Of a stretch of 13,990 nt of DNA, positions 1 to 13,990 are shown piece by piece (positions within the stretch are counted from its first letter, which is position 1; every line of letters begins with the position of its first letter). Where the stretch lies: contig CAXTTL010000128.1 in the NCBI GenBank assembly GCA_964247135.1, positions 1-13,990 of the forward strand, written 5' to 3'. The notes under the pieces were generated by a model that was not told where the DNA came from, did not search any database, and saw only the letters and a list, made by a program, of their open reading frames with translations. Both the position numbers and the translations under genes were made by a program. Source of the DNA: an uncultured Deinococcales bacterium (lineage in GTDB: Bacteria; Deinococcota; Deinococci; Deinococcales; JAAFIG01).

Positions 1-487
1 CCAAGCGCAACACCTCGAGTTCACGTTCGGTCAAGAGGTTCTCGAGCGGCGCGGTCTGAGGTTGCGTGAGTTCGCGCACCAGTTTGGCGGCGATGGCTGG
101 ATGCAACCACGATTCGCCGCGATGCACCGCACGAATGCCGCGCAGCAGATCATCGGGGCTGGATTCTTTTAACAGATACCCGAGCGCCCCAGCTTTGAGC
201 GCCGCAAAGACCTTGTCGTCTTCGACATAACTGGTCAAGACCAAGACTCGCGCTCGAGGATTCTGCTGACGAATCGCGCTGATCGCCCCGATGCCGTCAA
301 GTTTTGGCATCGAAAGGTCCATCAAAATCACGTCCGGCTGGCAGCCTCGCACCCGCTCGAGCGCCTCGAGTCCATCGCCCGCTTGACCCACAACCTGAAG
401 TCCGTCCTCACTGGAAATCAAGGCGATCAGACCCGCTCGGACCACGGTGTGATCTTCAGCGACAAACACCCGAATGGTTTCACTCAT
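1..487 (-). CDS. NarL/LuxR-family two-component response regulator (3' end beyond window)
   Basis: Not in the ORF track; translated by hand from ATG at 487: MSETIRVFVAEDHTVVRAGL...PDVILMDLSMPKLDG...VLVLTSY...AGALGYLLKE...LLTERELEVLRL. This is a receiver domain (ED, phospho-Asp in MDL, T, K) plus the start of a LuxR HTH. GGAGG RBS at 496-500. Confidence 0.95.
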   Translation of the reverse strand, partial: MSETIRVFVAEDHTVVRAGLIALISSEDGLQVVGQAGDGLEALERVRGCQPDVILMDLSMPKLDGIGAISAIRQQNPRARVLVLTSYVEDDKVFAALKAGALGYLLKESSPDDLLRGIRAVHRGESWLHPAIAAKLVRELTQPQTAPLENLLTERELEVLRL

Positions 488-576
488 GCCCGACCCCTCC
501 AGGTTGGTCTGTTGGTGGTGAAAGCATACCAGAACGGGTCACTGCCCCAAGTCATTGACGAAATAGGAATTAAACT

Positions 577-653
577 CCCTTCTCTCCTCGGAGAGAAGCG
601 CCCCAAGCCCGAAGTTGCTGCGGTAAGGGGCAAGACGGGTTGGGGATGAGAGG
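577..653 (-). repeat. REP-like palindromic repeat carrying mini-element copy A
   Basis: Minus strand reads CCTCTCATCCCCAACCCG[insert]TTCTCTCC-GA-GGAGAGAAG. It is an inverted match to 2940-3008. Confidence 0.8.
598..635 (-). mobile_element. Putative very small mobile element, copy A (divergent)
   Basis: TCTT-GCCCC-TTACCGCA-GCAACTTCGGGC-TT-GGGGC-GC on the minus strand. Confidence 0.55.
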
Positions 654-748
654 AGATAAGACGATTGCTGATTTTTGTGTCTGAAGCGCAAAAATAACGA
701 TGCCGGAGTCAATGATTTTGTGCTCATTTTGGCATCAAAAGCTCGAGT

Positions 749-2791
749 TCACCATTGGCGCGGCAGATACGGAACACGCACCCGTACCCTCGTCCCCTGA
801 CCAGCTTGGGATTCAATTTCAAAACTGCCGCCCAGTTTTTCGGCGCGTTGCCGCATGGCTTGCAGACCGATGCCATTGGACAATAAGCCCGTGTCAAAAC
901 CGCGACCATCGTCTTCAATCTCGAGTTGAAGTTCGGGTTTTAAAGCATTTTGGTGTAACTCGAGCTTGACTTTAACGGTTTGCGCTTGTGCGTGGCGCAG
1001 AGCGTTGTTCAGTGCGCCTTGAGCGATCAAGAACAACTGGTCTTCAGTTGTTTGATCGAGCAAGCTTTCGAGGTTGGTCTCGAGGCTTGTCCTAACCCCA
1101 GCGCGTTCTTCGACGGCATCCAGGCGGCGGCGCAGCGCCGTGACCAAACCAACACTTTCAAGGGCGGCTGGGCGCAACTCGTGGAGCATCAAACGCATTT
1201 CCTTGAGGGTTTGCTGGGCGGTGTCGCGCAGCATCTCGAGGTGGTCTTGGGCGGATTTGACGTTGCCTTTTTCGGCTTGGCGACGACCCGTTTCGGCAAA
1301 CAAGGTCAGGCTGTAGAGGGCTTGGGTCACGGAATCGTGCAATTCGCGCGAGAGCCGTTCGCGTTCCTCGAGCACCGCCATCTGTCCAGAGCGTTCTCGG
1401 AGGCGGTCATTCTCGAGTGCCAGTGCGCCGTGTTCTGCAAAGTTTTTGACCACTGCAAGCTCCTCCTCAAAAAAATCTCGTGACTCGAACGAGAACAGCA
1501 CCAAGCAGCCATGCACTTCGTTCATGATGATGATTGGTGCGACCAGAACGGCATGAAACGGGCTGACTTGACCGAACGTACCCGTCACATCGGACACCGA
1601 AACGGCTTCGCGTGAACGGGTGGCTTCCGCCAGCAAAAATTCAAACCAGGCGGCTTGAGCCACCAGCGCTTTGTGATCCTCGAGTCCCTGAGCGCCTTGG
1701 ATGCTCGGCAAGCCATCGATTTTGGACAAGCCACATACTGCCCCAGCGTCCAGTCCCAACAAGCGTCCAGCCTGTTCGACAATAAATGCCAAAATTTGCT
1801 CGAGGTCACGGCTGGAATTCAGGATCGAGAGCGTGCCTTGCAATGATTCTGCCACCTGCCGACGGCGTTCAATTTCTCTGGTGCGGGTTTTGACGCGACT
1901 CTCGAGCAGCGTCATGGTTTGAGTGCGTTCGATCTCGATTTTGCGGCGTTCGGTGACATCGCTGACCAGCATCACCCTGGCGGGTTGTCCACCCAGTTCG
2001 AGCGCATAACTCGAGGTTTCGACCTCGATCAGGCGTCCATCGCGGACACGATGCCGCTCTGCCTCGAGTGGCTTGCCGTTTGGGGCTTCGGTCAAGTCGG
2101 AGAGGTTCATGCGACACAGTTCAGCCTCGGTATAACCATACAGTTGCACGGCTGCGGGGTTGACCCCGCGAATCTCGAGGGTTTGAACATCGCAAACAAA
2201 TATTGGCAATGGGTTTGACTCGAACAAACCACGATACCGCGCTTCGGACTCGCGCAGCGCCCGCATGGTGCGTTGACGCTCGAGTTCAGAAGCCGCCCGC
2301 GCCGCGAAAATACGCAGCACGTTGGCGGCAGGGGTGTCCTCCGGCATGGGTTTTCGGTCAACCACCACCAGATGCCCAATCACCTGAAATATCGAATCGA
2401 GCAGCGGTAAACCGATATAACTTTCGGCAAGGCGGTCCGGTTCGGCGGGGAACAGTTGCGCCAGTTCGCGCGGCACAAAATATTCACGACCCTCAAGCAC
2501 CAACTCGCAAGGCAAACCCGCCACCGCGTATTCGGTGGTGGCAATCAACATCCCCGCCTCGAGGCTGGCAAGCTCACGGACGCTCTGAGGGGTTGCCATC
2601 AAACATTCGGTGACAAACACCACATGGACATTCAAGGCTGCCGCCACGTGTTGCACCAGCATATCGAAGAAGGCTTGACCCGTGACCCCTGCCGTGCCTT
2701 GCGCGATGACCCGCAGCAAAATCACAGCATCGTCCGACCAACCAAGTTGGGCTTCAGGCTCGAGATTGCTGGTTGACGGGGCATCATTCAT
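749..2791 (-). CDS. Cytoplasmic sensor histidine kinase, GAF-PAS-GAF-HisKA_3-HATPase_c
   Basis: H-box ERERLSRELHDSVTQ, N-box ALNNALRHA, G1 IEDDGRGF, G2 GIGL...SQAGQGT. PAS entry ESEARYRGLFESNP. GAF-like segments (YIGLPLL..IGHLVVVD; LVAPII..HGCLVL). No obvious TM helix. AGGTG upstream. Confidence 0.95.
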   Translation of the reverse strand: MNDAPSTSNLEPEAQLGWSDDAVILLRVIAQGTAGVTGQAFFDMLVQHVAAALNVHVVFVTECLMATPQSVRELASLEAGMLIATTEYAVAGLPCELVLEGREYFVPRELAQLFPAEPDRLAESYIGLPLLDSIFQVIGHLVVVDRKPMPEDTPAANVLRIFAARAASELERQRTMRALRESEARYRGLFESNPLPIFVCDVQTLEIRGVNPAAVQLYGYTEAELCRMNLSDLTEAPNGKPLEAERHRVRDGRLIEVETSSYALELGGQPARVMLVSDVTERRKIEIERTQTMTLLESRVKTRTREIERRRQVAESLQGTLSILNSSRDLEQILAFIVEQAGRLLGLDAGAVCGLSKIDGLPSIQGAQGLEDHKALVAQAAWFEFLLAEATRSREAVSVSDVTGTFGQVSPFHAVLVAPIIIMNEVHGCLVLFSFESRDFFEEELAVVKNFAEHGALALENDRLRERSGQMAVLEERERLSRELHDSVTQALYSLTLFAETGRRQAEKGNVKSAQDHLEMLRDTAQQTLKEMRLMLHELRPAALESVGLVTALRRRLDAVEERAGVRTSLETNLESLLDQTTEDQLFLIAQGALNNALRHAQAQTVKVKLELHQNALKPELQLEIEDDGRGFDTGLLSNGIGLQAMRQRAEKLGGSFEIESQAGQGTRVRVRVPYLPRQW

Positions 2792-2821
2792 GGAAGTTCA
2801 CCTTTTTGCGAGTGTCAAGAG

Positions 2822-2851
2822 ATTCTAATCCTCGATCCTCTTGAGCGGCAA
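2822..2851 (-). promoter_or_regulatory. Putative sigma70-type promoter for the kinase/regulator pair
   Basis: TTGCCG-18 nt-TAGAAT on the minus strand, with the -10 ending 30 nt before the kinase ATG. Confidence 0.45.
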
Positions 2852-2867
2852 AATCTTTTTCCCTCTC

Positions 2868-2940
2868 TCTTGACCATAAAACGCACCTTCTTGGTTTCAA
2901 GACGCACCTCACGGGCGAAACCGCTTGCGGGCATGGTCGC
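2868..2940 (+). mobile_element. Putative very small mobile element, copy B (interrupted by copy C)
   Basis: TCTT-GACCAT-AAAAC-GCACCT[copy C]TTGCGGGC-ATGGTC-GC. Confidence 0.65.
2889..2924 (+). mobile_element. Putative very small mobile element, copy C (nested in B)
   Basis: TCTT-GGTTTC-AAGAC-GCACCTCACGGGC-GAAACC-GC. Confidence 0.65.
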
Positions 2941-2954
2941 TCATCCCCAACCCG

Positions 2955-2989
2955 TCTTGACCATAAAACGCACCTTCGGGCATGGTCGC
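2955..2989 (+). mobile_element. Putative very small mobile element, copy D
   Basis: TCTT-GACCAT-AAAAC-GCACCTTCGGGC-ATGGTC-GC. Confidence 0.65.
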
Positions 2990-3135
2990 TTCTCTCCTCG
3001 GAGAGAAGCGAGTTTTGGTTTATTACACGTGTAGCTCGAGATTTCACCTCCTCCCTGCGGGAGAAGGTGGCGCGTAGCGCCGGATGAGGGCTTTGGGCGA
3101 GTGCTGATTCGTTTTTCGTGTCAGGCATAGGTCTC

Positions 3136-3459
3136 TTAGGTTTTGTTCGCGTCATCCTCGAGTTGCAACCCTCTAGAGATGTACCAATCCAATCCCGTTC
3201 TGATGCCCGCCACCGCCGCCAGCCGCGCAATTTCGGACCAATTCGGCGCTCGCAGGGTTGCCAGAATGTCCGCCGCCAGCAGAAACTCGAGCGCCAAAAG
3301 CAAAGACCGTGCGAACTCGAGTTGCACGGCTCGAATGCCGTGTGTGATGACGCGCAGGCTCGAGATGAAACCCAGCAAAATTGTGATTGCCGAGAGCGTC
3401 TGAAAGCCAATGCCGAGAATTTCGGCGAGGGCGTTGGCGCTGGTGTGCAAAATGTCCAT
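3136..3459 (-). CDS. DUF1622-family membrane protein (107 aa)
   Basis: Motif RSLLLALEFLLAADILAT..P....ARLAAVAGIRT. Start placed at ATG 3459 (MDILH), which overlaps the upstream SDR stop as TGATG. Confidence 0.85.
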   Translation of the reverse strand: MDILHTSANALAEILGIGFQTLSAITILLGFISSLRVITHGIRAVQLEFARSLLLALEFLLAADILATLRAPNWSEIARLAAVAGIRTGLDWYISRGLQLEDDANKT

Positions 3460-4214
3460 CAGGTTTCGCCGCCCACCAGACCCTCGCCGCCATCCACGCG
3501 CATGATCGTGCCGGTGGCAAAATCGTTGCTCGAGAGAAACACGCACGCCCTGGCGATATCTTCGGGCGTGCCAATCCGGCGCAACGGCAAACCTCGAGCG
3601 ATGGTTTCAAGTGCGCCTTCTGGTTCGCCGGCGGGTCGCAGGACTGGACCTGGCACGACGCAATTGACGCGAATGTTGTGCGCTGCTAGCGCCAGTGCCG
3701 CCACCTGGGTCAGTTGAATCACGCCCGCTTTTGCCACGCTGTGATGCGGTCTGGCAGCCCAAGGTTTTAAACCGCTGTTGTCGCTGAGATTGATGATCGA
3801 ACCACCTCGAGCACCTTTCAGCATCAATTTTGCCGCGTGCTGGGTGCAGAGAAACACGCCTGAAAGATTCGTGCCGATGACCGATTGCCATTCCTCAAAA
3901 TCGATCTCGAGAAAATTGGCTTTCTTAAAACTTGCCGCGCTGTTGACCAGCACATCCAAACGTCCGTAATGGGCTTGGGTGGCAGCGAACATTCGCTCGA
4001 CTTCGGCTGGTTTGGATTGATCCGCCTGCACAATGATCGCCTCCACCCCGAGCGCTCGAGCTTCCTGGGCAGCACTTTCGGCATCGCCTGCCGAGTTGCT
4101 GTGATGAATCACCAGGTTTGCACCCTGGCGTGCAAACTCGAGCGCGATGGCACGACCCACCCGTCGCGCCGAACCTGTGACCAAGACCACCGCATCCTTC
4201 AAACTGGTTTGCAT
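3459..4214 (-). CDS. SDR oxidoreductase, pteridine reductase/FolM-like (251 aa)
   Basis: TGSARRVGRAIA Rossmann variant, VNSA, INLSD, IRVNCVVPG, VDGG. Start placed at ATG 4214 (MQTSLKD), coupled to the GMC stop as TGATG. Confidence 0.9.
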   Translation of the reverse strand: MQTSLKDAVVLVTGSARRVGRAIALEFARQGANLVIHHSNSAGDAESAAQEARALGVEAIIVQADQSKPAEVERMFAATQAHYGRLDVLVNSAASFKKANFLEIDFEEWQSVIGTNLSGVFLCTQHAAKLMLKGARGGSIINLSDNSGLKPWAARPHHSVAKAGVIQLTQVAALALAAHNIRVNCVVPGPVLRPAGEPEGALETIARGLPLRRIGTPEDIARACVFLSSNDFATGTIMRVDGGEGLVGGET

Positions 4215-5761
4215 CAGCTTGACCTCACATTCAGTCGCTCGAGCAAATGGTCTGCCACCCGCAAACTGTTGGCAATCACGGTCAAGGACGGGTTGACCGC
4301 GCCGCAAGACGGAAAGAAACTCGCATCGACCACGTAGAGGTTCTCGAGTTCGTGGGCTTTGCAATTCAAATCCAGCACGCTCGAGTTTGGGTCTGTTCCA
4401 AAACGCATCGTGCCGTTTTGATGTGCCAGATTGAAAGCAAATTTGCTTCCCAGGTAGGCATCAATTGGGATCATGTGCTCATGGCAACCAATGTAGGACA
4501 GCAATTCGCGCAATTTGGCGATCAGGCGTTCGTGTGCCTCGAGGTTGTTTTTGACGTAATGCAGTTCGATCTCGCCCTGAGCATTGACCGTGACCCGATT
4601 TTCTGGGTCGGGCAGGTCTTCGGATTGCAACCAGAAATCGAGCGAGTGCGCCGCCATGTCTGCATAACTCATGCCCTCGAACGGCATCGGGGTTTCAAAC
4701 GCCATCAGCACCTCATCGACCTTGCCGAGCATCTGAATCAAACCCATTGGGTACTGCCAGTCGCTCGAGGCTTGATAAAAATCACTGATTGCCAAAGTCT
4801 TTTGGAAGCGGCTGTCATTTGGTTCTTTGGAGATGGCAAGAAAGGTCGAATTTTGATGGCACATGTAATTTCGCCCCACCAGATCAGAGCCGTTCGCCAA
4901 ACCACGCGGATGCTGATCGTTTTTGGATCGCAGCATGACCGCCGCCGAGTTTGCCGCCCCCGCCGCCAGCACCACCAGATCAGCCGTGAAGGTCTCGAGT
5001 TTGCCCTCATGAAGCGCAATCACTGTTCTGACCTCACGCCCCGAAGCGTCCGTCTCGAGACGCTCAACCTTGCGACCCGTCAGCAAGGTCACGTTTTCAA
5101 ACCCGAGCGCGGGCTTGAGCGCCACCACATGCGCATCGGCTTTGGCTTCGGTCGGGTCTGGATAGCCGTCAAAATGCCCCAGAACGGTGGGCGCAGCAGG
5201 CAGTGGCGCATCTTGCCCAAGCCTCACCCCGAGGGGCAAAGGAAAGGGTTTCAGCCCCAATTTTTGCAAATCAAGCTCGAGTTGCGCCACCCGAGGATCG
5301 TGCGGAATCGGCGCGAACGGATACGCTGCATTCGTGGCGGGTTCGGTTGGGTCGCGCCCACGCTCGCCATGAACGCTGTACAAACGCTCCGCACGGCTGT
5401 AATACGGCTCGAGGTCCTTGTACGAAATACCCCAAGCTGGAGAAACCCCGCCCACATGTTCGACCCGTTCAAAATCGGATTCGCGCAAACGAAACATTGC
5501 CGCGCCAAACATTTTGGTGTTGCCGCCAACCCAGTAATGAATCTCAGGACGGAAGGCTTTGTCGTTGTGATACCAGGTTTCATCGGTCTGATAACGCCTG
5601 TCCACAAAGACCGCTTTGGTGTCCCAATTCTCGCGTTCGCGCGGCAAGAATTCACCCCGCTCGAGCACCAAAATACGTTTGCCCGAAGGTGCAAGGGCTT
5701 GCAGCATCGTGCCGCCCCCCGCCCCCGTGCCAATGACAATCACATCAAAATGTTGGTTCAT
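4214..5761 (-). CDS. GMC-family FAD oxidoreductase
   Basis: GTGAGG FAD motif, ILVLERG, VGGNT, SDLVGRNYMCH, C-terminal HQNGTMRFG and NLYVVDASFFPS..AVNPSLT. GAGGAG RBS. Confidence 0.95.
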   Translation of the reverse strand: MNQHFDVIVIGTGAGGGTMLQALAPSGKRILVLERGEFLPRERENWDTKAVFVDRRYQTDETWYHNDKAFRPEIHYWVGGNTKMFGAAMFRLRESDFERVEHVGGVSPAWGISYKDLEPYYSRAERLYSVHGERGRDPTEPATNAAYPFAPIPHDPRVAQLELDLQKLGLKPFPLPLGVRLGQDAPLPAAPTVLGHFDGYPDPTEAKADAHVVALKPALGFENVTLLTGRKVERLETDASGREVRTVIALHEGKLETFTADLVVLAAGAANSAAVMLRSKNDQHPRGLANGSDLVGRNYMCHQNSTFLAISKEPNDSRFQKTLAISDFYQASSDWQYPMGLIQMLGKVDEVLMAFETPMPFEGMSYADMAAHSLDFWLQSEDLPDPENRVTVNAQGEIELHYVKNNLEAHERLIAKLRELLSYIGCHEHMIPIDAYLGSKFAFNLAHQNGTMRFGTDPNSSVLDLNCKAHELENLYVVDASFFPSCGAVNPSLTVIANSLRVADHLLERLNVRSS

Positions 5762-5780
5762 GATTTACTCCTCTCGAGTC

Positions 5781-6083
5781 TTAGAGCAAAAACATCTGCT
5801 CGAGTCGCCGCGCCGTAAATTCCGCCCAGGACAAGCCGTGTCCCTCGCGCACATGGTCTTGGTTGATGTCAAACAACAATTTGCCAAACGAAGCTGCATC
5901 AAATTGTTCTGCCTCAAAACGCGTTCCCAGCAATTCTGGCAAGCCGTTTTTCAGCGCCCAATCCGCGTACCAAACTGCCCAGTCTTGATCGTAAACACCC
6001 TTCAAAACGCTGGTTTCATACACCCCATGCGCAGAACCCGCGCGGCGCAGCAAGGTCGTGATTTGAGTCTCGAGATTGTTCAT
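5781..6083 (-). CDS. Hypothetical protein (100 aa, Trp-rich)
   Basis: GGAGG RBS, co-oriented, stop 19 bp before the GMC start. Protein-like sequence (AHGVYE...DQDWAVWYADW...SWAEFTARRL). Confidence 0.8.
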   Translation of the reverse strand: MNNLETQITTLLRRAGSAHGVYETSVLKGVYDQDWAVWYADWALKNGLPELLGTRFEAEQFDAASFGKLLFDINQDHVREGHGLSWAEFTARRLEQMFLL

Positions 6084-6153
6084 GAATTCCCCTCCAAAGT
6101 TTGTTTTTTGTCAGTCTCTCGAGCGTGAGAAAACGTTTCAGACTCTTAAAAGT

Positions 6154-6370
6154 CACCCCCTGCGAAAGTAGGGGTCGCCGCTTGTAACAGAATTCTCAGC
6201 ATATTTTGTGACTCGAGCGTGACCAGTCATTGCGGCGGGGGGTCGTGCAAGATTCAGTCGATTTACCAATTCCGCACGACCCCTCCGTCTCTCGCTGCGC
6301 TCTCTTGACCCTAAAGATGCACCTGACGGGCTGAGTCGCTCGAGCCACCTCCCCTACTGCGCAGGGGAGA
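6154..6370. repeat. Inverted pair of REP-like units (REPIN-like) with internal insertions
   Basis: Left CCCCCT..AGGGG-TCGCCGC..GCGGC-GGGGGGTCGTGC; right GCACGACCCC-TCCG..CCACCTCCCCT..AGGGGAG. Perfect 10-bp central IR GGGGTCGTGC/GCACGACCCC. Confidence 0.8.
6303..6339 (+). mobile_element. Putative very small mobile element, copy E
   Basis: TCTT-GACCCT-AAAGAT-GCACCTGACGGGC-TGAGTC-GC, flanked by GCTC on the left and TCGAG on the right. Confidence 0.6.
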
Positions 6371-6434
6371 ACTAACGGCACTGGATTTCTGTTGTGGTCG
6401 ATCTTCCTGCAACATCACCTCGAGCCATCACGGT

Positions 6435-7370
6435 TTAACGAATCGCCAGTGGCGCAACCCACGCCCCCGTCGCCCCGCGCACTTTGGCGTGAGAAACAAC
6501 GAACATAAATTCATAAACAACATCTCGAGCCAGTTCCTCGAGTTTTAGATTCTCGAGGATGAACACCCCGTGTTTGACGTTCAGGGTTTGCGGGACTTCA
6601 AACGGGCGATCTGGATTCTCAAATGGCACAGCGCCGTAACTCCAAGTGTCGCAACCACTGAGGGCGATGCGTTGCTCGACCAACCATTGTGCCAGCGCCA
6701 AACCAGGACCAGGTTCAGCAGCCAGGTACGCGGCGTTGTCCAGCATCCAATACGCGCCCCAGCCCGTGTGAAACAAGACCGCATCGCCAGCGCGAAGCTC
6801 GAGGTGTTGACGCTCGAGGGCTTGTTGGGCGTCTTGAACGGTAATGGCATAACCGCCCTCGAGTCGTGTCACGCCTTTGAGCGCCGCAATGTCGAGCAAA
6901 ACCCCTCGAGTCACAATTTGCGGGACGGTTTCGATGCCGAGTTTGTTCGTGCCGTAAGGTTCGATGATCTCAGGCAGGGCGAAACCGTTGTAACAATGCC
7001 CTCCAATTTGAAGGTGGTTCAAGCCGTCCAAATGCGTGCCAAGTTGCGAGGTGCTCGAGGTGATTTCAACAATCCAATTCACATCGTTTTCGCCCCAACC
7101 GCCCATTGCGCCGTGATCGGGTCGTCGCGCATTTTCTTGGTGTGCGGTGGCGGTCAGGTGCTGGCGGAAACTGCGCCCTGGAAAGGCGGGAACGTGTTCG
7201 TCCAAAACATGCGCCAGGTCATAGACTTGCCCTTGATGCACCAACTGGGCAGCCCTGACCACCTGCTCGAGTCCAATTTCGTTCAACGCCCCGATTTGAT
7301 CGTCCGTGCCGTACCGCCCTGGAAACCAGCTTTCTCGAGCTTGGGTTGTGGCTGACCGCGAGTTGTTCAT
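6435..7370 (-). CDS. Cyclase-family (kynurenine formamidase-like) metal-dependent hydrolase
   Basis: QLGTHLDGLNH metal motif, TRGVLLDI, GDAVLFHTGW, EPG, GCDT, GVFILENL, GATGAWVAPLAI. Confidence 0.92.
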   Translation of the reverse strand: MNNSRSATTQARESWFPGRYGTDDQIGALNEIGLEQVVRAAQLVHQGQVYDLAHVLDEHVPAFPGRSFRQHLTATAHQENARRPDHGAMGGWGENDVNWIVEITSSTSQLGTHLDGLNHLQIGGHCYNGFALPEIIEPYGTNKLGIETVPQIVTRGVLLDIAALKGVTRLEGGYAITVQDAQQALERQHLELRAGDAVLFHTGWGAYWMLDNAAYLAAEPGPGLALAQWLVEQRIALSGCDTWSYGAVPFENPDRPFEVPQTLNVKHGVFILENLKLEELARDVVYEFMFVVSHAKVRGATGAWVAPLAIR

Positions 7371-7372
7371 GG

Positions 7373-8182
7373 TTATTCCGAAGACCAGGAGGTGCGAAAA
7401 TCTGGGTAGAGCGTCAAACCGCCGTCCACAAAAATCGTCTGCCCCGTAATGTAGCCGCCCAGATCGCTTGCCAGAAACGCCACGGTTTCCGCCATCTCGT
7501 CGCTTGTGCCAGCGCGACCCATCGGAATGTGCGATTCGACCATCGCCCGCTTGTCGGGATCATCAATCCAGGAACGGTTGATCGGTGTGACCGTCGCGCC
7601 AGGACCCACGCCATTGACCCGAATGCCGCGCCCTGCGTACTCGAGCGCCAAAGTGTGCGTTAGGTTTTGCATTCCGCCTTTGCTGACGCTGTAACCCAAA
7701 AAACGCGGCTTGGGAATGACCTGGTGAACGCTCGAGATGTTGATGATGCTGCCAGGTTTTTTTGCCTCGAGAAGATGCTGAACGGTTCGCTGGGCGCACA
7801 TGAACGCGCCGCGCAGGTTGGTGTTCAAAACGCGATCAAATTGTTGCACGGTCATCTCGTGCGAATCTGCTGGAATTTGAATGCCGGCGTTGTTGATCAA
7901 AATATCCAAAGTCCCCCAGTCGTTCAAAACCGTGTTGAACATCTGCGCCACGTCTTCTTCTTTGGAGACATCCGCCTGCACCAAAATGTCTTTGACCCCG
8001 TGTTGACGCACAGAATTTCGGCAGAACTGAATCGCGTCTTCGGTTTTTTGGGCTTCATCGCGGTTGCTGTAATAATTGATTGCCACGTCCGCACCGTACT
8101 CTGCGAACTTCACCGCGATTGCCTGCCCGATGCCGCTCGAGCCACCCGTGACCAAGACCTTCTTGCCTTTTAAACCTTTCAT
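7373..8182 (-). CDS. SDR oxidoreductase, glucose 1-dehydrogenase-like
   Basis: TGGSSGIG, INNAG, NISSVHQVIP, catalytic YSVSK, LALEYA..GIRVN..GPG..TPIN, as in Gdh-type SDRs. AAGGAG RBS. Substrate unverified. Confidence 0.9.
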   Translation of the reverse strand: MKGLKGKKVLVTGGSSGIGQAIAVKFAEYGADVAINYYSNRDEAQKTEDAIQFCRNSVRQHGVKDILVQADVSKEEDVAQMFNTVLNDWGTLDILINNAGIQIPADSHEMTVQQFDRVLNTNLRGAFMCAQRTVQHLLEAKKPGSIINISSVHQVIPKPRFLGYSVSKGGMQNLTHTLALEYAGRGIRVNGVGPGATVTPINRSWIDDPDKRAMVESHIPMGRAGTSDEMAETVAFLASDLGGYITGQTIFVDGGLTLYPDFRTSWSSE

Positions 8183-8208
8183 GATTGCTCCTTTGTGTTC
8201 TTGTTTCT

Positions 8209-8234
8209 GTAGGGGCGAACCTTGTGTTCGCCCT
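8209..8234 (+). repeat. GTAG-type REP hairpin
   Basis: GTAG-GGGCGAAC-CTTGT-GTTCGCCC-T: a GTAG tetramer next to a perfect 8-bp stem, between DUF5996 and the Gdh-like gene. Confidence 0.75.
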
Positions 8235-8307
8235 CAGCGAAGGTAAATTCTCGAGGAAGGTCAATTTAGAGCCTGTTGGAAAAGTAACCGAGCCATTGAG
8301 GAAAAAA

Positions 8308-9174
8308 TTACGGTTTCAAGCTTGGCGCAAGACTATGAAACACAACCTCGAGCGCGTTTTCGATCAACGCTTCTGGATCATCGGAAGCCTCGAGCACGCC
8401 ATACGGCATGACCATGCCCTTCCAACCCTGCGTGTGCCACTGTGCGCCCGTCGCAAGCGGCAATTGCTCGAAGCCTTCTGGCATTGGGTAGGCGTAAGCG
8501 TAAAGGTAGGGTTGGTCAAATTCGGCATCGAACGGCGCGAAACCAAAATTCATGTGCGGCGCATTCTCATCGTGTTTTTCGCCTGCAAACCAGAGGGTTG
8601 AAAGGTCAAAATGCTCGGACCAGACCACGGCTGGCGTGACAAAACCCGTCAGCCTCGAGCGCCAACGTGAGATCGCGCCGAATGTCCGCCAGAGTGCCAT
8701 GCCATACGTCGCGCTGAGTTTGGTGTCGATCTGCATTGGATCGGTGTTGCTGACCTGAAGCGAGCCGTCGAGCTTGTGGTGCTTGGCTTTTAAAGCCGCC
8801 AGAAAAGCGCTTTCAAATGAGCCATCTATCGCTTCGACCAAAGGCTGCCCTTGGCGGTGCAACGTCTCGAGCAGCACCTCGAGCAAACCAGCTTGGGTGC
8901 GTCCCGAGATGGTCATGCTTTCAACCTGACCACTGGGCGAGATCACCAGCATTGTGCCTTCTTGAAAATCGAGTTTGAGGCTGCCACCCGAAGGCAGGTT
9001 CTCGCTCGAGACTCCTATTTTTTCAACCCTCAATGCCAGTTCCAAATAGTTCTCGACGGGTTCGCGGGTCAGCAACCTGATCGCGCCGAGAATCTGTGCG
9101 GCTTGGTGAAGACCACGGGCGGTTTGCGTCCAACCCTCGAGTGATCCAAACTTCAATGGTGCTGCTGGGTTCAT
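8308..9174 (-). CDS. DUF5996-like protein
   Basis: W..T...LH...QILG, WSEHFDLS and GFAP......PYLYAYAYP motifs. ATGA overlap with the upstream gene; GGAGG RBS. Confidence 0.78.
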   Translation of the reverse strand: MNPAAPLKFGSLEGWTQTARGLHQAAQILGAIRLLTREPVENYLELALRVEKIGVSSENLPSGGSLKLDFQEGTMLVISPSGQVESMTISGRTQAGLLEVLLETLHRQGQPLVEAIDGSFESAFLAALKAKHHKLDGSLQVSNTDPMQIDTKLSATYGMALWRTFGAISRWRSRLTGFVTPAVVWSEHFDLSTLWFAGEKHDENAPHMNFGFAPFDAEFDQPYLYAYAYPMPEGFEQLPLATGAQWHTQGWKGMVMPYGVLEASDDPEALIENALEVVFHSLAPSLKP

Positions 9175-9698
9175 CCTTGACCTCCTGGTGAAACTGAAAC
9201 CGTTAATGGTGGTGTTGCCAAACCCGAGACGCGCGACACCTCAAACTCGACCGCACCGTGCGAGCGACGAATCTCAAAACTCACCACCAGCAAACCGATC
9301 AAGACCGAAGCCGTGCCAAGCAAAAACACCAGCAATGCTGCGACCGAAACCCATTGGCTTTCAAGGGCGTTTGCCAGGGCAATCAACAACATGCTAAGCA
9401 CACAACAAACCGCCCCCAAATAAACAAAAACCAGCGCATTTCGCATCAGCTTGTGGCGCTGTAAAAGTTCAGGAAGCTGGGTGTCGATCTCGCTCAGACG
9501 CTCCAAGGTCAGCGCAGTGTCAAAACCCGAAGCCGCATTTCGCAGGCACTCGAGCCGTTCACGGTTGAGGTCACGAAGCCGCCCGTTGATTGCCCCGTAA
9601 TGCGCCAGCAAACCAGTCAACAAGACCGCGCAAGCATTGACCATGACGGTTGGGGCAAGAATAAACTGCATGGTTTTGGCAATCATCTCGAGGTTCAT
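9171..9698 (-). CDS. DUF2721-family membrane protein
   Basis: ILAPTVMVNACAVLL..L...Y..I..RLR pattern with three hydrophobic segments. AGGAG RBS. Confidence 0.85.
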   Translation of the reverse strand: MNLEMIAKTMQFILAPTVMVNACAVLLTGLLAHYGAINGRLRDLNRERLECLRNAASGFDTALTLERLSEIDTQLPELLQRHKLMRNALVFVYLGAVCCVLSMLLIALANALESQWVSVAALLVFLLGTASVLIGLLVVSFEIRRSHGAVEFEVSRVSGLATPPLTVSVSPGGQG

Positions 9699-9729
9699 CG
9701 CAGACTCCTGAACATTTTTATTTTCATGG

Positions 9730-9870
9730 TCATTCTGATTCGGTTTTTTGGTTTTCTTCAGGCGGCTGCTCGAGTTTGCTCTCGAGCACTGGTCGGGCGG
9801 GCGCGTAATCGGCTTCCCAAAACATGCGGGCGATGTCTTGCGCCGAAAGTTCGATGTGCTCGGTTTTCAT
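9730..9870 (-). CDS. Small hypothetical protein (46 aa)
   Basis: Hand translation: MKTEHIELSAQDIARMFWEADYAPARPVLESKLEQPPEENQKTESE*. GGAGG RBS 6 nt before the ATG; stop 31 bp upstream of DUF2721. Confidence 0.65.
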   Translation of the reverse strand: MKTEHIELSAQDIARMFWEADYAPARPVLESKLEQPPEENQKTESE

Positions 9871-10187
9871 GGTTAACCTCCAACGCCGTCGCACCCTCGA
9901 GAAACAACTCGGGCTTGGCGATCAAACGTTTTGTGTGTTTGAGGAATGACGTTCCCCTCGGGTCATATGATGCGGTTTCAAAGCGAAATTGAAATCGGCG
10001 CAACGACTCGGAATTTGAAAGGGATTGATACGTCAAATGTCGTGGGAGCACTGAGGGTTGACGCGGAGTGGACCGCAACTTAGAACCGGCTTCGCCAAGC
10101 TCGATTGGTGGGCGTAAACGAATTGAATGGCTCGAGGTTTTGATTCGAGCCGAACGATTGGGAATCATGGCGATCACAAAATCTGGG

Positions 10188-10193
10188 TATGCT
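10188..10193 (+). promoter_or_regulatory. -10 element of a putative leaderless AraC transcript
   Basis: TATGCT followed by 7 nt then ATG 10201; no convincing Shine-Dalgarno. Confidence 0.55.
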
Positions 10194-10200
10194 GAGATCA

Positions 10201-11037
10201 ATGAACCATTGGCAGTATCAAGCACACGCGGTCTTGAAACCATTTTTAGAATGCCTATGGGTCTCAACCGAAGATTTCACACCGCCAGACAAGGTCATTG
10301 AAATCCTACCGGATGCCGAGATTGAATTGATTTTTGCTTTCGGTTCGCCGATCTGGGTTGAGCACTCGAGCATCAGGCGTCAAGTGGCGAAGTGTTTTGC
10401 CGTTGGCTTGTTGACCAAACCGATTCGCTTTGGCGCGAGTGGTCCGGTCACCGTTGTTGCGGCGCGTTTCAACGCCAGCGGATTCTATGCCCTGGTGGGA
10501 TCGTTTTTGAACCCCGAGCAACAACCCGTCGGTCACCTCGGCGATGAATGGGTCAGCCTCGGCGCTCAACTCGAAGATGCACTTCTTACGCACGGGCGAA
10601 ATGCTGCCGTTCAAGTACTCCATGAGTTCCTGATCGAACGGGCGTTGAAGCTCACCTTGGACGCTCGAGTGATCGACGCTGCCATCGCCGAACTGATGCT
10701 GGAACAAGGACAGATCACAATCGGCGAACTTGCCGACCGCTATCAGGTTTCAACGCGGCAACTCGAGCGCGAATTTCGCTCGAAGGCGGGGACATCACCG
10801 AAGTTGCTCAGTCAATTGATGCGCTTTCAACACGTGCGAGATGCCCTGTGGCGCGATCCATCGTTGAACCTCGCGGAGCTTGCCTTGAGCGCGGGTTATG
10901 CCGACCAGGCGCACTTCAGCCGAGAGTTTCGCCGTCTGGCAGAGCGCACCCCTCGAGCATTCGCAACAAACATGAAAGCCACCCGAGCATTTTTGAACGC
11001 CAGCGGTGTCGCTTTTCTTCAAGACCAAAGCCCGTAA
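10201..11037 (+). CDS. AraC-family transcriptional regulator (DUF6597-like N-terminal domain)
   Basis: L.PFLECLW and ILPDA..ELIF at the N-terminus; HTH region STRQLEREF...GTSPK...RF and LALSAGYADQAHFSREFRRLA..TP. Start 10201 preferred because a TATGCT -10 lies 7 nt upstream. Confidence 0.92.
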   Translation: MNHWQYQAHAVLKPFLECLWVSTEDFTPPDKVIEILPDAEIELIFAFGSPIWVEHSSIRRQVAKCFAVGLLTKPIRFGASGPVTVVAARFNASGFYALVGSFLNPEQQPVGHLGDEWVSLGAQLEDALLTHGRNAAVQVLHEFLIERALKLTLDARVIDAAIAELMLEQGQITIGELADRYQVSTRQLEREFRSKAGTSPKLLSQLMRFQHVRDALWRDPSLNLAELALSAGYADQAHFSREFRRLAERTPRAFATNMKATRAFLNASGVAFLQDQSP

Positions 11038-11056
11038 ACAGGGCATGATGAAATTC

Positions 11057-11440
11057 ATGACAAACTTACACACGATTGGAATCGTTGCCGCCGACCTGAA
11101 AAAAACGCTCGGGTTTTACCGTGTTTTGGGGCTTGAGATTCCAGAAGCTCTGGAGGGTGAAGACAATATCGATGTCAAAATATCGGACGCCATCACGCTC
11201 GGGTTTTTAAGTGAAACCCTGGCACGGCGTGCCGACCCAAAGTTTCAGACCCCAGTCGGGCAGAGCATGAACCTTCAGTTTGAATGCTCGAGCGCCAGCG
11301 AGGTGGACGCGACCTTTCAACGCTTGATCGACCACAGTTACGAGGCTTACGCCGAACCTTGGGACGCCTTCTGGGGACAACGTTTCGCGCGGATCAAAGA
11401 CCCAGACGGTCGTGTGGTCAACCTTTTTGCTCAACTGTAG
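11057..11440 (+). CDS. VOC/glyoxalase-bleomycin-resistance superfamily protein
   Basis: IGIVAADL..TLGFY..LGL, LQFEC....EVDA and PWDAFWGQRFARIKDPDG. Start uncertain (11045, 11048 or 11057). Confidence 0.9.
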   Translation: MTNLHTIGIVAADLKKTLGFYRVLGLEIPEALEGEDNIDVKISDAITLGFLSETLARRADPKFQTPVGQSMNLQFECSSASEVDATFQRLIDHSYEAYAEPWDAFWGQRFARIKDPDGRVVNLFAQL

Positions 11441-11449
11441 CGTCTCGAG

Positions 11450-12091
11450 CTATTTGAGTTTTATTTTGAAAGTCGCGCCCGTTTTCGCCTGTACCTCTTC
11501 CAAGCCCACCCCAGGTGCGAGTTCGACAAGCTCAAGTCCAGCTTTGGTGACGTCCAAAACGCACAAGTCCGTGATGATTCTATTGACCACCGCTTGACCT
11601 GTTAAGGGCAAATCGCAATGCTCGAGAATCTTGTGAACCTCGTTTTTCGCCACATGTTCCATCAAGACCATCACGCGTTGCACGCCCGCGACCAAATCCA
11701 TCGCGCCGCCCATGCCTTTGACCATTTTGCCTGGAATCATCCAGTTTGCCAGATCGCCGTGTTGTGAGACTTGCATTGCGCCCAAGATCGCAAGGTTGAT
11801 GTGCCCGCCGCGAATCATGGCGAAACTATCGCTGCTCGAGAAAAAACTTGCACCAGGCAGCGCGGTCACGGTTTGCTTGCCGGCGTTGATTAGGTCGGCG
11901 TCCACGTCTTGCTCGAGCGGGAACGGTCCAATGCCCAGAAGTCCATTTTCGGATTGCAAAATCACATCCCTGCCTTCGGGAATAAAATTGGCGACCAAGG
12001 TCGGCAGTCCAATGCCCAGGTTGACATAAAAACCATCTTGCAATTCTTGTGCGGCTCGAGCCGCCATTTGATCGTGCGTCCAAGCCATCAT
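11450..12091 (-). CDS. scoB: 3-oxoacid CoA-transferase subunit B
   Basis: VNLGIGLPT, catalytic Glu in [39 protein letters not shown] overlap with subunit A. Confidence 0.93.
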
Positions 12092-12795
12092 GCCACCTCG
12101 AGATTGCGGGTGGTGCGTTTTTCGATGCGTTTTTCTGGATTTGAATTGAGCACCAGGCGCTGCACAAAAACCCCTGGGGTGTGAACATCATCAGGCTCGA
12201 GTTCGCCGACCTCAACAATTTCTTCGACTTCGGCGACCGTGATTTTGCCGCACATGGCGATCATCGGGTTAAAGTTTCGCGCGGTTTTGCGGTAAATCAA
12301 ATTGCCCAGACGGTCTGCCTTCCAGGCTTTCACCAGCGACACATCGGCTTTGATGCCACGCTCGAGGATAAAGGTTTCGCCGTCAAAATCTTGGTGTTGT
12401 TTGCCGGTGGCGACCACCGTGCCGACACCCGTTTTGGTGTAAAACCCCGGAATGCCCGCACCGCCCGCCCGCAATCTTTCGGCGAGCGTGCCTTGAGGCA
12501 CAAACTCGAGTTCGAGTTCACCGCCCAAAAATTGGCGTTCAAATTCTTTGTTCTCGCCCACGTAACTCGAGATCATTTTTTTGACTTGTCTCGACTCGAG
12601 CAGCAATCCCAAGCCCCAACCGTCGACGCCGGCGTTGTTGCTGGCAACGGTCAGGTTTTGCACGCCAGAATCGCGCAGCGCACGAATCAGGCTCTCTGGA
12701 ATACCGCACAGTCCGAAACCGCCAACCGCAAGCAGTTGAGAATCTTGAACGATACCGGCTAAAGCAGCGTTGGCGTCTTGATAGAGCTTATTCAT
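12088..12795 (-). CDS. scoA: 3-oxoacid CoA-transferase subunit A (235 aa)
   Basis: [46 protein letters not shown]. Start placed at ATG 12795 (MNKLY), downstream of AAGGAG. Confidence 0.93.
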
Positions 12796-12820
12796 GTTGG
12801 GTTTGAACTCCTTGAAGATC

Positions 12821-12826
12821 ATTTTA
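12821..12826 (-). promoter_or_regulatory. Putative -10 element for scoAB
   Basis: TAAAAT 7 nt upstream of the AAGGAG RBS in an AT-rich stretch; no clear -35. Confidence 0.35.
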
Positions 12827-13012
12827 CTTCTTGAAGTCCAAGAAATTGAAAACAAAAATGAAGACGCCATCTCGAAAAGGCTCGATCAAAAGATTCAAAT
12901 CACGCTTCATCTGCCCCAACCTCAAACGCACCGCAATGGCGTGTTCAGCCATGCCCTGTTACGAGACCAGGGCTATCGCCGGCTCGAGCTTGCAGGTTTG
13001 CCATTGCAAAGT

Positions 13013-13990
13013 TCAGTCCGCACCGACGAGCGCCTCAGAAAAACTTGGGATGTTGACAAAGCCGTCAGAATACACAGCATGACCTTGACGGAATGTGGCG
13101 CGAACCCGAGGGTGTTCGGTTTCTTCGACCAGGGCAAGGTCGGCTCGTAACCCAGGCTCGAGTCGTCCTCGGTCCGAGAGGTTTGCGGAACGTGCGGCGT
13201 TCTTGGTAATCAGGGACACGGCGTGCTCGAGGGACAAAATGTGTTCTCGAGCAATTTTGTAAACGCTTTGCAACAGCGCCGCAGGGTAATAATCGGCTGC
13301 CAGCACGTCCACCACGCCCGCCCGAATCCCCTCGAGCGCCGAGAGGTTGCCCGAGTGCGAAGCCCCGCGCAGCGCGTTCGGTGCGCCCATCGCCACGAAC
13401 ATGTTTTTGCTTTTTGCCGCCCGCGCCGCCTCGAGCGTGACCGGAAATTCGCTGATGGTCGCGCCAAAACCCTCCATCATGCCCACTTTGGCGCTGGTGT
13501 CATCGTCGTGGCTTGCCAGCGCCACACCGCGCTCGAGACAGAGTTTTGAAATCTCATGCCCAACATTCCAAGCCACGGGCGCACGCTGAGACTCTTCCAA
13601 CCTCGCCTTGACGGTGTTCTCGGCTTGCTCGCGGTCGGTGCCGAGCCACTTGACCATGTAATTGACGTAAGTCTCCAGGTCACGAAACTGTCCCTGCCCT
13701 GGCGTGTGATCCATCAAGGAAACCATCTGCACCAAATCCCGCTCGAGCAGTCTTCTCAGGAACGGCGCCGAGATGGCGGTGCTGACCTCAAACCTGGCAT
13801 GAACCAGCATGTCGATGCCGAGCTGCGGGCGAAGTTCGTGGATGGTTTGGATCAGTTCATTGGCTCGAGCCTCCGAACGCAAGCCTGGACCATCGGACAG
13901 CGCAACGGCGGCAAACGCCGTGGTGATGCCAGATGCCGCGAGGCGTTTGTCGAGTTCCAAGACCGCCAGTTTTGCTGCAAACATCGTACC
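13013..13990 (-). CDS. phnM: Alpha-D-ribose 1-methylphosphonate 5-triphosphate diphosphatase (5' end beyond window)
   Basis: D..LAASGITT, HARFE, SLMDHTPGQGQF, ASHDD, SEFP.T, MGAPN..RG.SHSGN, DYYP, DRG.L.PG.RADL. The frame stays open to the window edge. Confidence 0.93.
   Translation of the reverse strand, partial: GTMFAAKLAVLELDKRLAASGITTAFAAVALSDGPGLRSEARANELIQTIHELRPQLGIDMLVHARFEVSTAISAPFLRRLLERDLVQMVSLMDHTPGQGQFRDLETYVNYMVKWLGTDREQAENTVKARLEESQRAPVAWNVGHEISKLCLERGVALASHDDDTSAKVGMMEGFGATISEFPVTLEAARAAKSKNMFVAMGAPNALRGASHSGNLSALEGIRAGVVDVLAADYYPAALLQSVYKIAREHILSLEHAVSLITKNAARSANLSDRGRLEPGLRADLALVEETEHPRVRATFRQGHAVYSDGFVNIPSFSEALVGAD

Follow-up and report, generated by a model that had tools for sequence, protein, structure and literature searches.

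Why a single six-base word should be repeated again and again through genes and spacers alike is the question raised by a 13,990-nt stretch of DNA from an uncultured Deinococcales bacterium. The word is the palindrome CTCGAG, and the stretch, referred to below as the window, is the whole of contig C128 of genome G000 (5.09 Mb in 386 contigs, none longer than 69 kb, 84% complete). CTCGAG is a highly iterated palindrome (HIP) of the type represented by HIP1: a bare 6-bp word, present at about one copy per 150 bp, with no longer repeat around it. Its abundance was compared with several null models in the window and in the genome, its conservation was followed in alignments of related genomes, and whole-genome counts were obtained for 121 genomes of the order, 19 of which make up the window's family.

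Abundance of CTCGAG in the window and the genome

Exactly 102 copies of CTCGAG were counted in the window, starting with one at 14-19 and ending with one at 13864-13869. In 200 shuffles that preserved dinucleotides the mean was 3.57 copies (standard deviation 1.87, maximum 9), so that the observed number represents an excess of about 29-fold. Eighty-three copies lie inside the 14 called genes and 19 outside; each gene holds between 1 and 15, and none is without the word. The genic copies fall in all three reading frames, 61 as CTC-GAG, 9 in frame +1 and 13 in frame +2. When synonymous codons were shuffled within each gene, which leaves the amino-acid sequence and the codon usage unchanged, 12.8 ± 3.1 copies were obtained, with a maximum of 22 in 500 shuffles, against the 83 observed. 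The original prediction for this locus, based on a hand count, had given about 102 copies against about 4 expected, a roughly 25-fold enrichment, with sites in every gene and in all three frames that protein constraint could not explain. All of this was borne out, and only its guanine-plus-cytosine (GC) content for the window, about 57%, has to be corrected to 55.4%.

The excess, which might have been confined to the window, is genome-wide. G000 holds 33,925 copies (6.66 per kb), while the runner-up palindromic hexamer reaches 3,272. The observed-to-expected ratio (O/E) of CTCGAG was 24.8, 35.2, 14.4 and 3.5 under Markov models of order 0, 1, 2 and 3, respectively; the value of 1.24 at order 4 is trivial because the sub-words used there are dominated by CTCGAG itself. 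All 297 contigs longer than 5 kb carry the word at 2.6-10.5 per kb, and 6-kb windows hold 10-71 copies each, at least 10 being present in every one of the 3,143. Densities of only about 2.5-3 per kb were found in AT-rich islands and in a mobile-element-like contig (G000:C42:5001-25000). This contig encodes an HNH nuclease, ParA, a single-stranded DNA-binding protein and helicases, and has 17-19 copies per 6 kb, about half the usual number; a viral relative of one of its helicases was looked for and not found.

For the genome-wide split into coding and non-coding DNA, 4,266 genes were called in this analysis with a crude gene caller, which missed at least one real gene of the window (a short-chain dehydrogenase/reductase (SDR) gene at 3459-4364). 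The called genes contain 28,243 copies of CTCGAG compared with 3,913 ± 68 after the synonymous shuffle, which leaves a 7-fold excess even though this null is already inflated by the codons of CTCGAG itself. A strictly dicodon-preserving null is blind to the CTC-GAG frame, since CTC-GAG is itself a dicodon. The genic copies are distributed over the three frames as 17,719, 4,058 and 6,466. Of the 22,823 Leu-Glu pairs, 17,719 (77.6%) are spelled CTCGAG, compared with 4.9% expected from codon use elsewhere, and outside Leu-Glu both CTC (15%) and GAG (33%) are minority codons. CTCGAG has also bent the proteome towards Leu-Glu, whose O/E of 2.36 is the highest of all dipeptides; Ser-Ser is raised as well (1.62).

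The word is densest where constraint is weakest. Spacers of 20-250 bp between called genes carry 9.75 copies per kb at a GC content of 46%, compared with 6.66 per kb in genes. Convergent spacers are the densest class (11.9 per kb), and the first 50 bp past stop codons have 10.8 per kb. An apparent equality of coding and non-coding DNA (6.66 and 6.65 per kb) was discarded, as it reflects the crude gene calls and the short-spacer value is the cleaner measure.

Base frequencies in the flanks stay between 0.13 and 0.39 at every position and are thus near random; a mild bias, symmetric about the word, favours A at -3 and T at +3 as well as G at -1 and C at +1. Extension of CTCGAG into longer palindromes occurs at or below chance, and only 26 of the 33,925 sites lie in exact repeats (at least 24 bp, at least three copies). 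These facts together indicate that the unit is the bare hexamer. Repeats were masked by 24-mers; masking by 16-mers was dropped as biased, because 16-mers containing such a frequent word recur by chance. A role in hairpins or terminator stems was also considered and rejected, since CTCGAG does not stand at the centre of longer palindromes, though it is enriched right after stops. Furthermore, every context that fixes five of the six bases (NTCGAG and so on) is itself enriched about 7-fold, CTNGAG for example having 36,189 copies in total, which shows that the force acts on the whole word and not on one position. The one-off transition neighbours form a modest halo (O/E 1.2-1.8), and TCGA outside CTCGAG is close to expectation.

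The gap between successive sites has a mean of 148 bp and a coefficient of variation (CV) of 0.96. Sites 7-12 bp apart have a pair correlation of 0.32; the value is about 0.8 for distances of 19-36 bp and reaches about 1.0 past 60 bp, and in non-coding DNA a depletion of pairs is seen in the 7-12 bp bin only. A gap of 6 never occurs, because GAGCTC would then arise. No helical phasing at 10-11 bp was detected, the ratio of power to variance being 0.5-0.8 there and 3.8 at the best of 144 periods. Placement so close to independent speaks against any rule of spacing and against arrays of phased proteins.

Conservation, gain and loss of sites

For pairwise conservation, 286 kb of genome G005, which is about 85% identical to G000, were aligned to it. 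In this alignment 1,493 of 1,935 CTCGAG sites (77%) were kept, while other hexamers of matching frame class were kept in 46% of cases; for the non-coding part of the alignment the values were 67.6% (n=213) and 39.1%. The third base of CTC was kept in 92.2% of cases (n=1,017) before GAG and in 63.8% (n=1,030) elsewhere, and the third base of GAG in 93.7% inside the word against 69.2% elsewhere. The same was true of codons that the word touches in other frames, TCG (92.7% against 72.9%) and CGA (87.4% against 59.5%). Overall, synonymous positions inside CTCGAG are conserved 4-6 times better than those of the same codons elsewhere.

Six congeneric genomes are nearly equidistant from one another (divergence 13-16%). 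In the 60 kb common to them, CTCGAG is present in one, two, three, four, five and six genomes at 36, 18, 22, 23, 52 and 98 positions, respectively, so gains and losses are both ongoing. Changes were then polarised by parsimony (two genomes agree and the third differs) in a 127-kb alignment of G000, G004 and G005. In this set 270 of 2,034 CTCGAG sites (13.3%) had been lost, against a change of 34.2% in other hexamers. The losses are not dominated by one C-to-T product, so nothing points to a hypermutable 5-methylcytosine. As for gains, 26 of 491 one-off ancestors had become CTCGAG compared with 8.6 expected at the substitution rates of the controls, a 3.0-fold excess (Poisson P 1.3e-6).

Sites outnumber each of their transition neighbours 15- to 24-fold, which corresponds to a scaled advantage S of 2.6-3.1. 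From this S, standard fixation theory predicts gain at 2.8-3.2 times and loss at 0.15-0.20 times the neutral rate, and the observed values were 3.0 for gain and 0.17-0.24 for loss after multiple-hit correction. CTCGAG sites are lost 4-6 times slower and gained about three times faster than control changes, and one weak directional force per site, with S of about 3, fits the abundance of the word and both rates at once. A value of this size belongs to weak selection or to gene-conversion-like drive, and the force overrides many synonymous and some amino-acid choices.

Distribution among relatives

All 19 genomes of the window's family are enriched, with 12,028-35,442 copies of CTCGAG per genome (4.3-6.8 per kb); one of them, G011, is a single contig. 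The family loci sampled span 41-62% GC. For example, at two loci of family member G009 (L451 and L453) the GC content is only about 41% and yet 4.6-4.9 copies per kb are present, which shows that CTCGAG is independent of base composition.

The other families of the order have 0.01-3.1 copies per kb, or 0.3-3.1 per kb if a genus referred to as g7 is set aside. The genomes with 1-3 per kb are near-complete, mostly about 99%, and some are in 1-6 contigs, so that their sources may be in culture. In genus g7 (26 genomes, 63-73% GC) CTCGAG has 40-942 copies and its reverse, GAGCTC, 10-1,024, and both words are strongly under-represented. Despite this avoidance, an XhoI-family nuclease was found in none of the 26 genomes. 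The best plasmid-database match of a locus from g7 was to Deinococcus, at 79.7% identity. As an outside control, 80 loci from unrelated phyla contained 0-2.3 copies per kb. Viral contigs were also scanned for three close copies of CTCGAG; the matches listed mostly had 64-70% GC, with the reversed word often about equally frequent, and phages of the clade were not identified among them. Sequencing runs gave only small shares of matching words, 0.10 at most, with no RNA run listed.

A possible mark of kin DNA

By analogy with HIP1, CTCGAG may be a mark of kin DNA in uptake, processing or recombination; we favour this reading tentatively, while rating it somewhat below an even chance. The weak directional force acts on each site separately, with recognition of the whole hexamer in duplex DNA, and the word would be read by a symmetric, sequence-specific protein. 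During DNA exchange CTCGAG would then identify DNA as the cell's own or as that of kin. DNA carrying it might be more efficiently taken up, spared or recombined, and site-bearing alleles would replace site-less ones. Such a drive would come from molecular preference, possibly together with methylation, as has been proposed for HIP1 in cyanobacteria. A preference for kin DNA would by itself drive whole words, whatever the distance between them. The lower density in the mobile-element-like contig and in the AT-rich islands, as well as the peak after genes, fits the same reading. According to the available text of two reports, natural transformation of a cyanobacterium increases more than 100-fold with methylated HIP1, and a function as an uptake sequence has been put forward for HIP1 (bioRxiv 10.1101/2024.09.10.611283; PMC13756078).

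Several points weigh against a kin-DNA mark. ComEC and DprA were each found in 5 of 5 family genomes tested, but the searches also matched Deinococcus radiodurans and Thermus thermophilus, which served as controls, and finding the two proteins is therefore not diagnostic. For Thermus and Deinococcus, DNA uptake is considered not to depend on sequence. The uptake sequences known are 9-12 nt long, asymmetric and present at about one per kb, and a 6-bp palindrome is the typical target of a dimeric methylase or nuclease, not of an uptake receptor. No reader protein was found, nor was any family-wide methyltransferase, XhoI-type nuclease or Vsr in searches of the 19 genomes; G000 is an 84%-complete metagenome-assembled genome, in which missing genes prove little. 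The gain estimate rests on control rates that pool codon positions and on three-taxon parsimony on a near star-like tree (distances 0.13-0.16). A six-genome gain test on 60 kb gave 6 gains against 3.5 expected (P 0.14); it was underpowered and is superseded by the 127-kb three-genome set. Finally, selection on a function in cis and conversion-like drive are inseparable here, as both predict the same S signature.

A bolder form of the kin-DNA reading would make CTCGAG the shortest and densest kin-DNA signal known, accumulated by drive with S of about 3, responsible for the rewriting of about 13,000 Leu-Glu pairs, independent of HIP1 and working without an orphan methylase. We regard this combination as speculative and rather doubtful.

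Alternative explanations

An alternative that appears doubtful, though by no means negligible, is an orphan methylase for CTCGAG or TCGA that acts without a nuclease, the methylated sites serving a selected epigenetic, replication or repair function, as has been supposed for the orphan methylases DmtA and DmtC at HIP1. CTCGAG is a classical type II target, and the mild symmetric flanks (A at -3, T at +3) fit a dimeric enzyme. XhoI-family nuclease and methylase pairs are present in 6 of the 121 genomes of the order, the partner being a 340-aa methylase of family PF01555. In a sister family, at locus L386 (G021:C1:73699-77256) and at L387, the nuclease gene is convergent with that of the 340-aa methylase. 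Orthologues of the partner methylase occur at 62-79% identity in two sister families, and in 11 of the 16 genomes of genus g9 they (62-66%) occur without the nuclease. Pairs and lone orthologues together indicate that CTCGAG-type enzymes circulate in the lineage. Genomes with a complete pair still hold 0.7-1.9 copies of CTCGAG per kb. A precedent is offered by HIP1, as far as the available text of PMC4390886 and PMC13756078 goes.

However, no candidate enzyme emerged in the window's family. The XhoI-family endonuclease (PF04555) was found in 0 of 19 family genomes by the same search that matched 6 of 121 in the order, this being the one nuclease family of CTCGAG specificity searched for. An orthologue of the XhoI-partner methylase was likewise not found; there were only generic, partial matches of 33-47% in the C-terminal part, in 7 of 18 genomes. 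Six Pfam methylase families were surveyed over the 19 genomes, a design that enzymes outside these six models would escape. TaqI_C matched sporadically, in 6 of 19 genomes, and PF01555 in 17, neither being present in the single-contig G011; C5 methylases matched in 18, G008 being the one without. N6_Mtase matched in all 19 (heterogeneous, mostly HsdM-like), and D12 and Eco57I each in 18, both heterogeneous. No family-wide methyltransferase orthologue was seen in the hit tables of these six families over the 19 genomes, which are mostly incomplete. Because of this incompleteness, the enzyme negatives mean not found with these queries rather than absent.

The methylases of G000 itself also speak against an orphan enzyme. 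Five of them adjoin nuclease genes that are SacI-, PvuII-, NgoPII-, Eco29kI- and MvaI/BcnI-like, and their targets, predicted from the Pfam family names, are avoided words other than CTCGAG: GAGCTC (SacI) has 0 copies in G000, CAGCTG (PvuII) 15, GGCC (NgoPII) 380 and CCGCGG (Eco29kI) 11. The remaining methylases are two MmeI-like enzymes, a type I HsdM and a 1502-aa open reading frame (ORF) with a methylase domain in a low-density island, in addition to three partial or weak PF01555 matches (contigs C207 and C4). A D12 methylase of about 285 aa is widespread in the family; it resembles M.CbeI (PDB 7M6B, E 1.7e-91), which has alpha-class N4-cytosine activity, and not a CTCGAG enzyme. No recognised nuclease gene adjoins it in G011, and a 397-aa partner adjoins it in G005. 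A further point against the model is the near-expected frequency of TCGA outside CTCGAG.

It is unlikely that an abundant, sequence-specific nucleoid protein binds CTCGAG for chromosome compaction or organisation, with selection keeping the sites. The whole-word recognition, the symmetric flanks and the very even cover of the genome, with at least 10 sites in every 6-kb window, fit such a protein, and the same conclusion was drawn for HIP1 in the available text of Xu et al. 2018 (PMC5861425). On the other hand, the sites show no 10-11 bp phasing, their spacing is near random (CV 0.96) instead of regular, and no candidate protein was found.

Biased mismatch repair towards CTCGAG, comparable to the action of Vsr at CCWGG in E. 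coli, would be a neutral process leaving a word without function, and it is very unlikely. Lowered loss and raised gain would result from it as well, and the merely modest halo of transition neighbours is in its favour. However, Vsr was found in none of the 19 family genomes by a search that matched three named genomes as control. A Vsr-type activity corrects one position, whereas all six are driven here, and the losses lack the dominant C-to-T product. No repair enzyme is known that would turn every kind of mismatch, at whichever of six positions, into one and the same word.

The original prediction had combined an orphan methylase with biased repair into a HIP-like system, and had named a genome-wide protein-binding signal, which may yet apply, as the alternative. 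Its HIP-like part is supported by the bare hexamer with near-random flanks, its spread over genome and family, the conservation of site positions and the excess left once coding is accounted for. The proposed machinery fared otherwise, since no methylase candidate and no Vsr were found and single-position repair is insufficient. The M.XhoI- or M.TaqI-like orphan enzyme it had pointed to did not appear, as the family has no XhoI-partner orthologue among the matches and the TaqI-type specificity domain is limited to 6 of 19 genomes; nor did a periodicity of spacing, for which it had suggested a check, show at 10-11 bp.

That the abundance merely follows from biased codons, dipeptides or composition, or from repeats scattered through the genome, is refuted for practical purposes: about 60% of genic sites are Leu-Glu CTC-GAG, and high-GC relatives and high-GC phage contigs do reach 1-7 per kb via codon usage alone, but with the reversed word alongside, while in G000 GAGCTC is absent, the 7-fold excess survives the synonymous shuffle, spacers are denser than genes, hardly any sites lie in exact repeats and synonymous positions within the word are the better conserved ones.

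Other features of the window and the genome

The genes of the window are ordinary and include a two-component pair, dehydrogenases, a GMC oxidoreductase, a cyclase, coenzyme A (CoA)-transferase subunits A and B and an amidohydrolase. Two peptides cited in the original prediction as examples of the minor frames are both real. One is KGARGG (3801-3818, minus strand) in the short-chain dehydrogenase gene, where the site at 3806..3811 (minus strand) is read GCT-CGA-GGT (Ala-Arg-Gly). The other is DPNSSVL (4373-4393, minus strand) in the GMC oxidoreductase gene, where the site at 4380..4385 (minus strand) is read AAC-TCG-AGC (Asn-Ser-Ser).

Eight sites had been cited as intergenic, and all of them do lie outside the gene calls. 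The site at 742..747 is between the histidine-kinase gene (749-2791, minus strand) and the response-regulator gene (2-487, minus strand), and that at 5773..5778 directly upstream of the GMC oxidoreductase start (5761). The site at 6118..6123 adjoins a dispersed repeat (6132-6398), and that at 8250..8255 has an SDR gene (7373-8182) on one side and a DUF5996 gene (8308-9174) on the other. At 11444..11449 the word makes up most of a 9-bp spacer between the convergent stops of a glyoxalase-family gene (plus strand) and the CoA-transferase B gene (minus strand), and the site at 12983..12988 is between the CoA-transferase A gene and the amidohydrolase gene. Two cases are less clear. The site at 10131..10136, upstream of an AraC-type regulator gene (10189-11037, plus strand), falls within an unsupported 169-aa ORF. 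The site at 3035..3040 falls within an unsupported 208-aa ORF and also within the dispersed repeat at 2858-3109, so it gives no independent support for intergenic enrichment.

The window contains three intergenic dispersed repeats, at 559-695, 2858-3109 and 6132-6398, which resemble repetitive extragenic palindromes or miniature inverted-repeat transposable elements (REP/MITE-like) and have 350 matches at 72-97% identity across five congeneric genomes. A 523-aa ORF at 4247-5818 (plus strand) has no Pfam match and is antisense to the GMC oxidoreductase gene (4214-5761, minus strand); it is most likely a shadow ORF.

Elsewhere in G000, several palindromes are near-absent: GGGCCC (1 copy), CGGCCG (3), AGGCCT (4), CGTACG (5) and GGATCC (7). 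In 16 of the 19 family genomes GAGCTC, which is CTCGAG reversed, does not exceed 25 copies. The slot between the nucleoside hydrolase gene and Sua5 holds an NgoPII-like nuclease and a C5 methylase in G000 (contig C14), and the M.CbeI-like methylase with the 397-aa ORF in G005 (contig C6). It looks like a swap site for restriction systems. CbeI is presumably a GGCC enzyme, and the systems exchanged here possibly had the same GGCC specificity.

Comparison with known systems

The target of XhoI and PaeR7I is the identical word, CTCGAG, and sister families within the order have XhoI-family pairs. Genomes avoid restriction targets, as G000 does with those of its own systems, whereas CTCGAG is enriched 25-fold and no XhoI-family nuclease was found in the 19 genomes. 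In practice, digestion of G000 DNA with XhoI would yield pieces of about 150 bp, and CTCGAG will bias gene finders as well as binning by composition.

Chi sites (RecBCD/AddAB recombination hotspots) are likewise over-represented, self-marking words; DNA-processing machinery reads them, and each site brings a small benefit. They differ in their asymmetry, in following the direction of replication and in being much less frequent than CTCGAG is here, and no machinery of this kind has been linked to CTCGAG. For HIP1, a role like that of Chi is suggested in the available text of bioRxiv 10.1101/2024.09.10.611283.

The DNA uptake sequences (DUS) of Neisseriaceae and the uptake signal sequences (USS) of Pasteurellaceae are over-represented in genes and spacers, enriched after genes, shared within a family and able to shape proteins, and drive can suffice to accumulate them. 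CTCGAG resembles them in its occurrence in genes and spacers, its peak after stops, its family-wide distribution and its effect on the proteome. It differs in being a 6-bp palindrome with near-random flanks at about 7 per kb, and for DUS and USS an uptake bias has been shown experimentally.

The closest likeness is to HIP1 (GCGATCGC) and the alternate cyanobacterial palindromes, which, as far as the available text of PMC4390886 and PMC5861425 describes them, are likewise short, hyper-abundant and found in all frames and between genes. Both HIP1 and CTCGAG are clade-wide and conserved in position beyond background, and the function of both is unexplained. The 25-fold enrichment of CTCGAG lies within the 15- to 300-fold range given for HIP1 in the part of PMC5861425 that is available. 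The two differ in their hosts (cyanobacteria and Deinococcota) and in length (8 bp and 6 bp), and the density of CTCGAG, 6.7 per kb, is very high. HIP1 proper, GCGATCGC, is not the word here, and its core CGATCG is avoided in G000 (47 copies). A quasi-periodic distribution at 10-90 kb has been described for HIP1 in the available text of Xu et al. 2018 (PMC5861425). HIP1 also has two cognate orphan methylases, DmtA and DmtC, according to the available text of PMC13756078, whereas for CTCGAG none was found with the six Pfam families searched over the mostly incomplete family genomes. A literature search, including terms within Elhai 2015 (PMC4390886), returned no report of CTCGAG hyper-abundance in the sources covered, which leave out subscription journals and supplements.

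HIP1 has been unexplained for three decades and known from a single phylum, and an independent case makes it possible to tell general explanations from cyanobacterial particulars. It also shows that a weak force per site, with S of about 3, is enough to fill a whole genome with one word and to change the make-up of its proteins. The order offers graded natural material, from avoidance in g7 through genomes with 1-3 per kb to the family with 4-7 per kb, that could help to identify the reader protein. CTCGAG is thus a second, denser case of a HIP1-type palindrome, outside the cyanobacteria.

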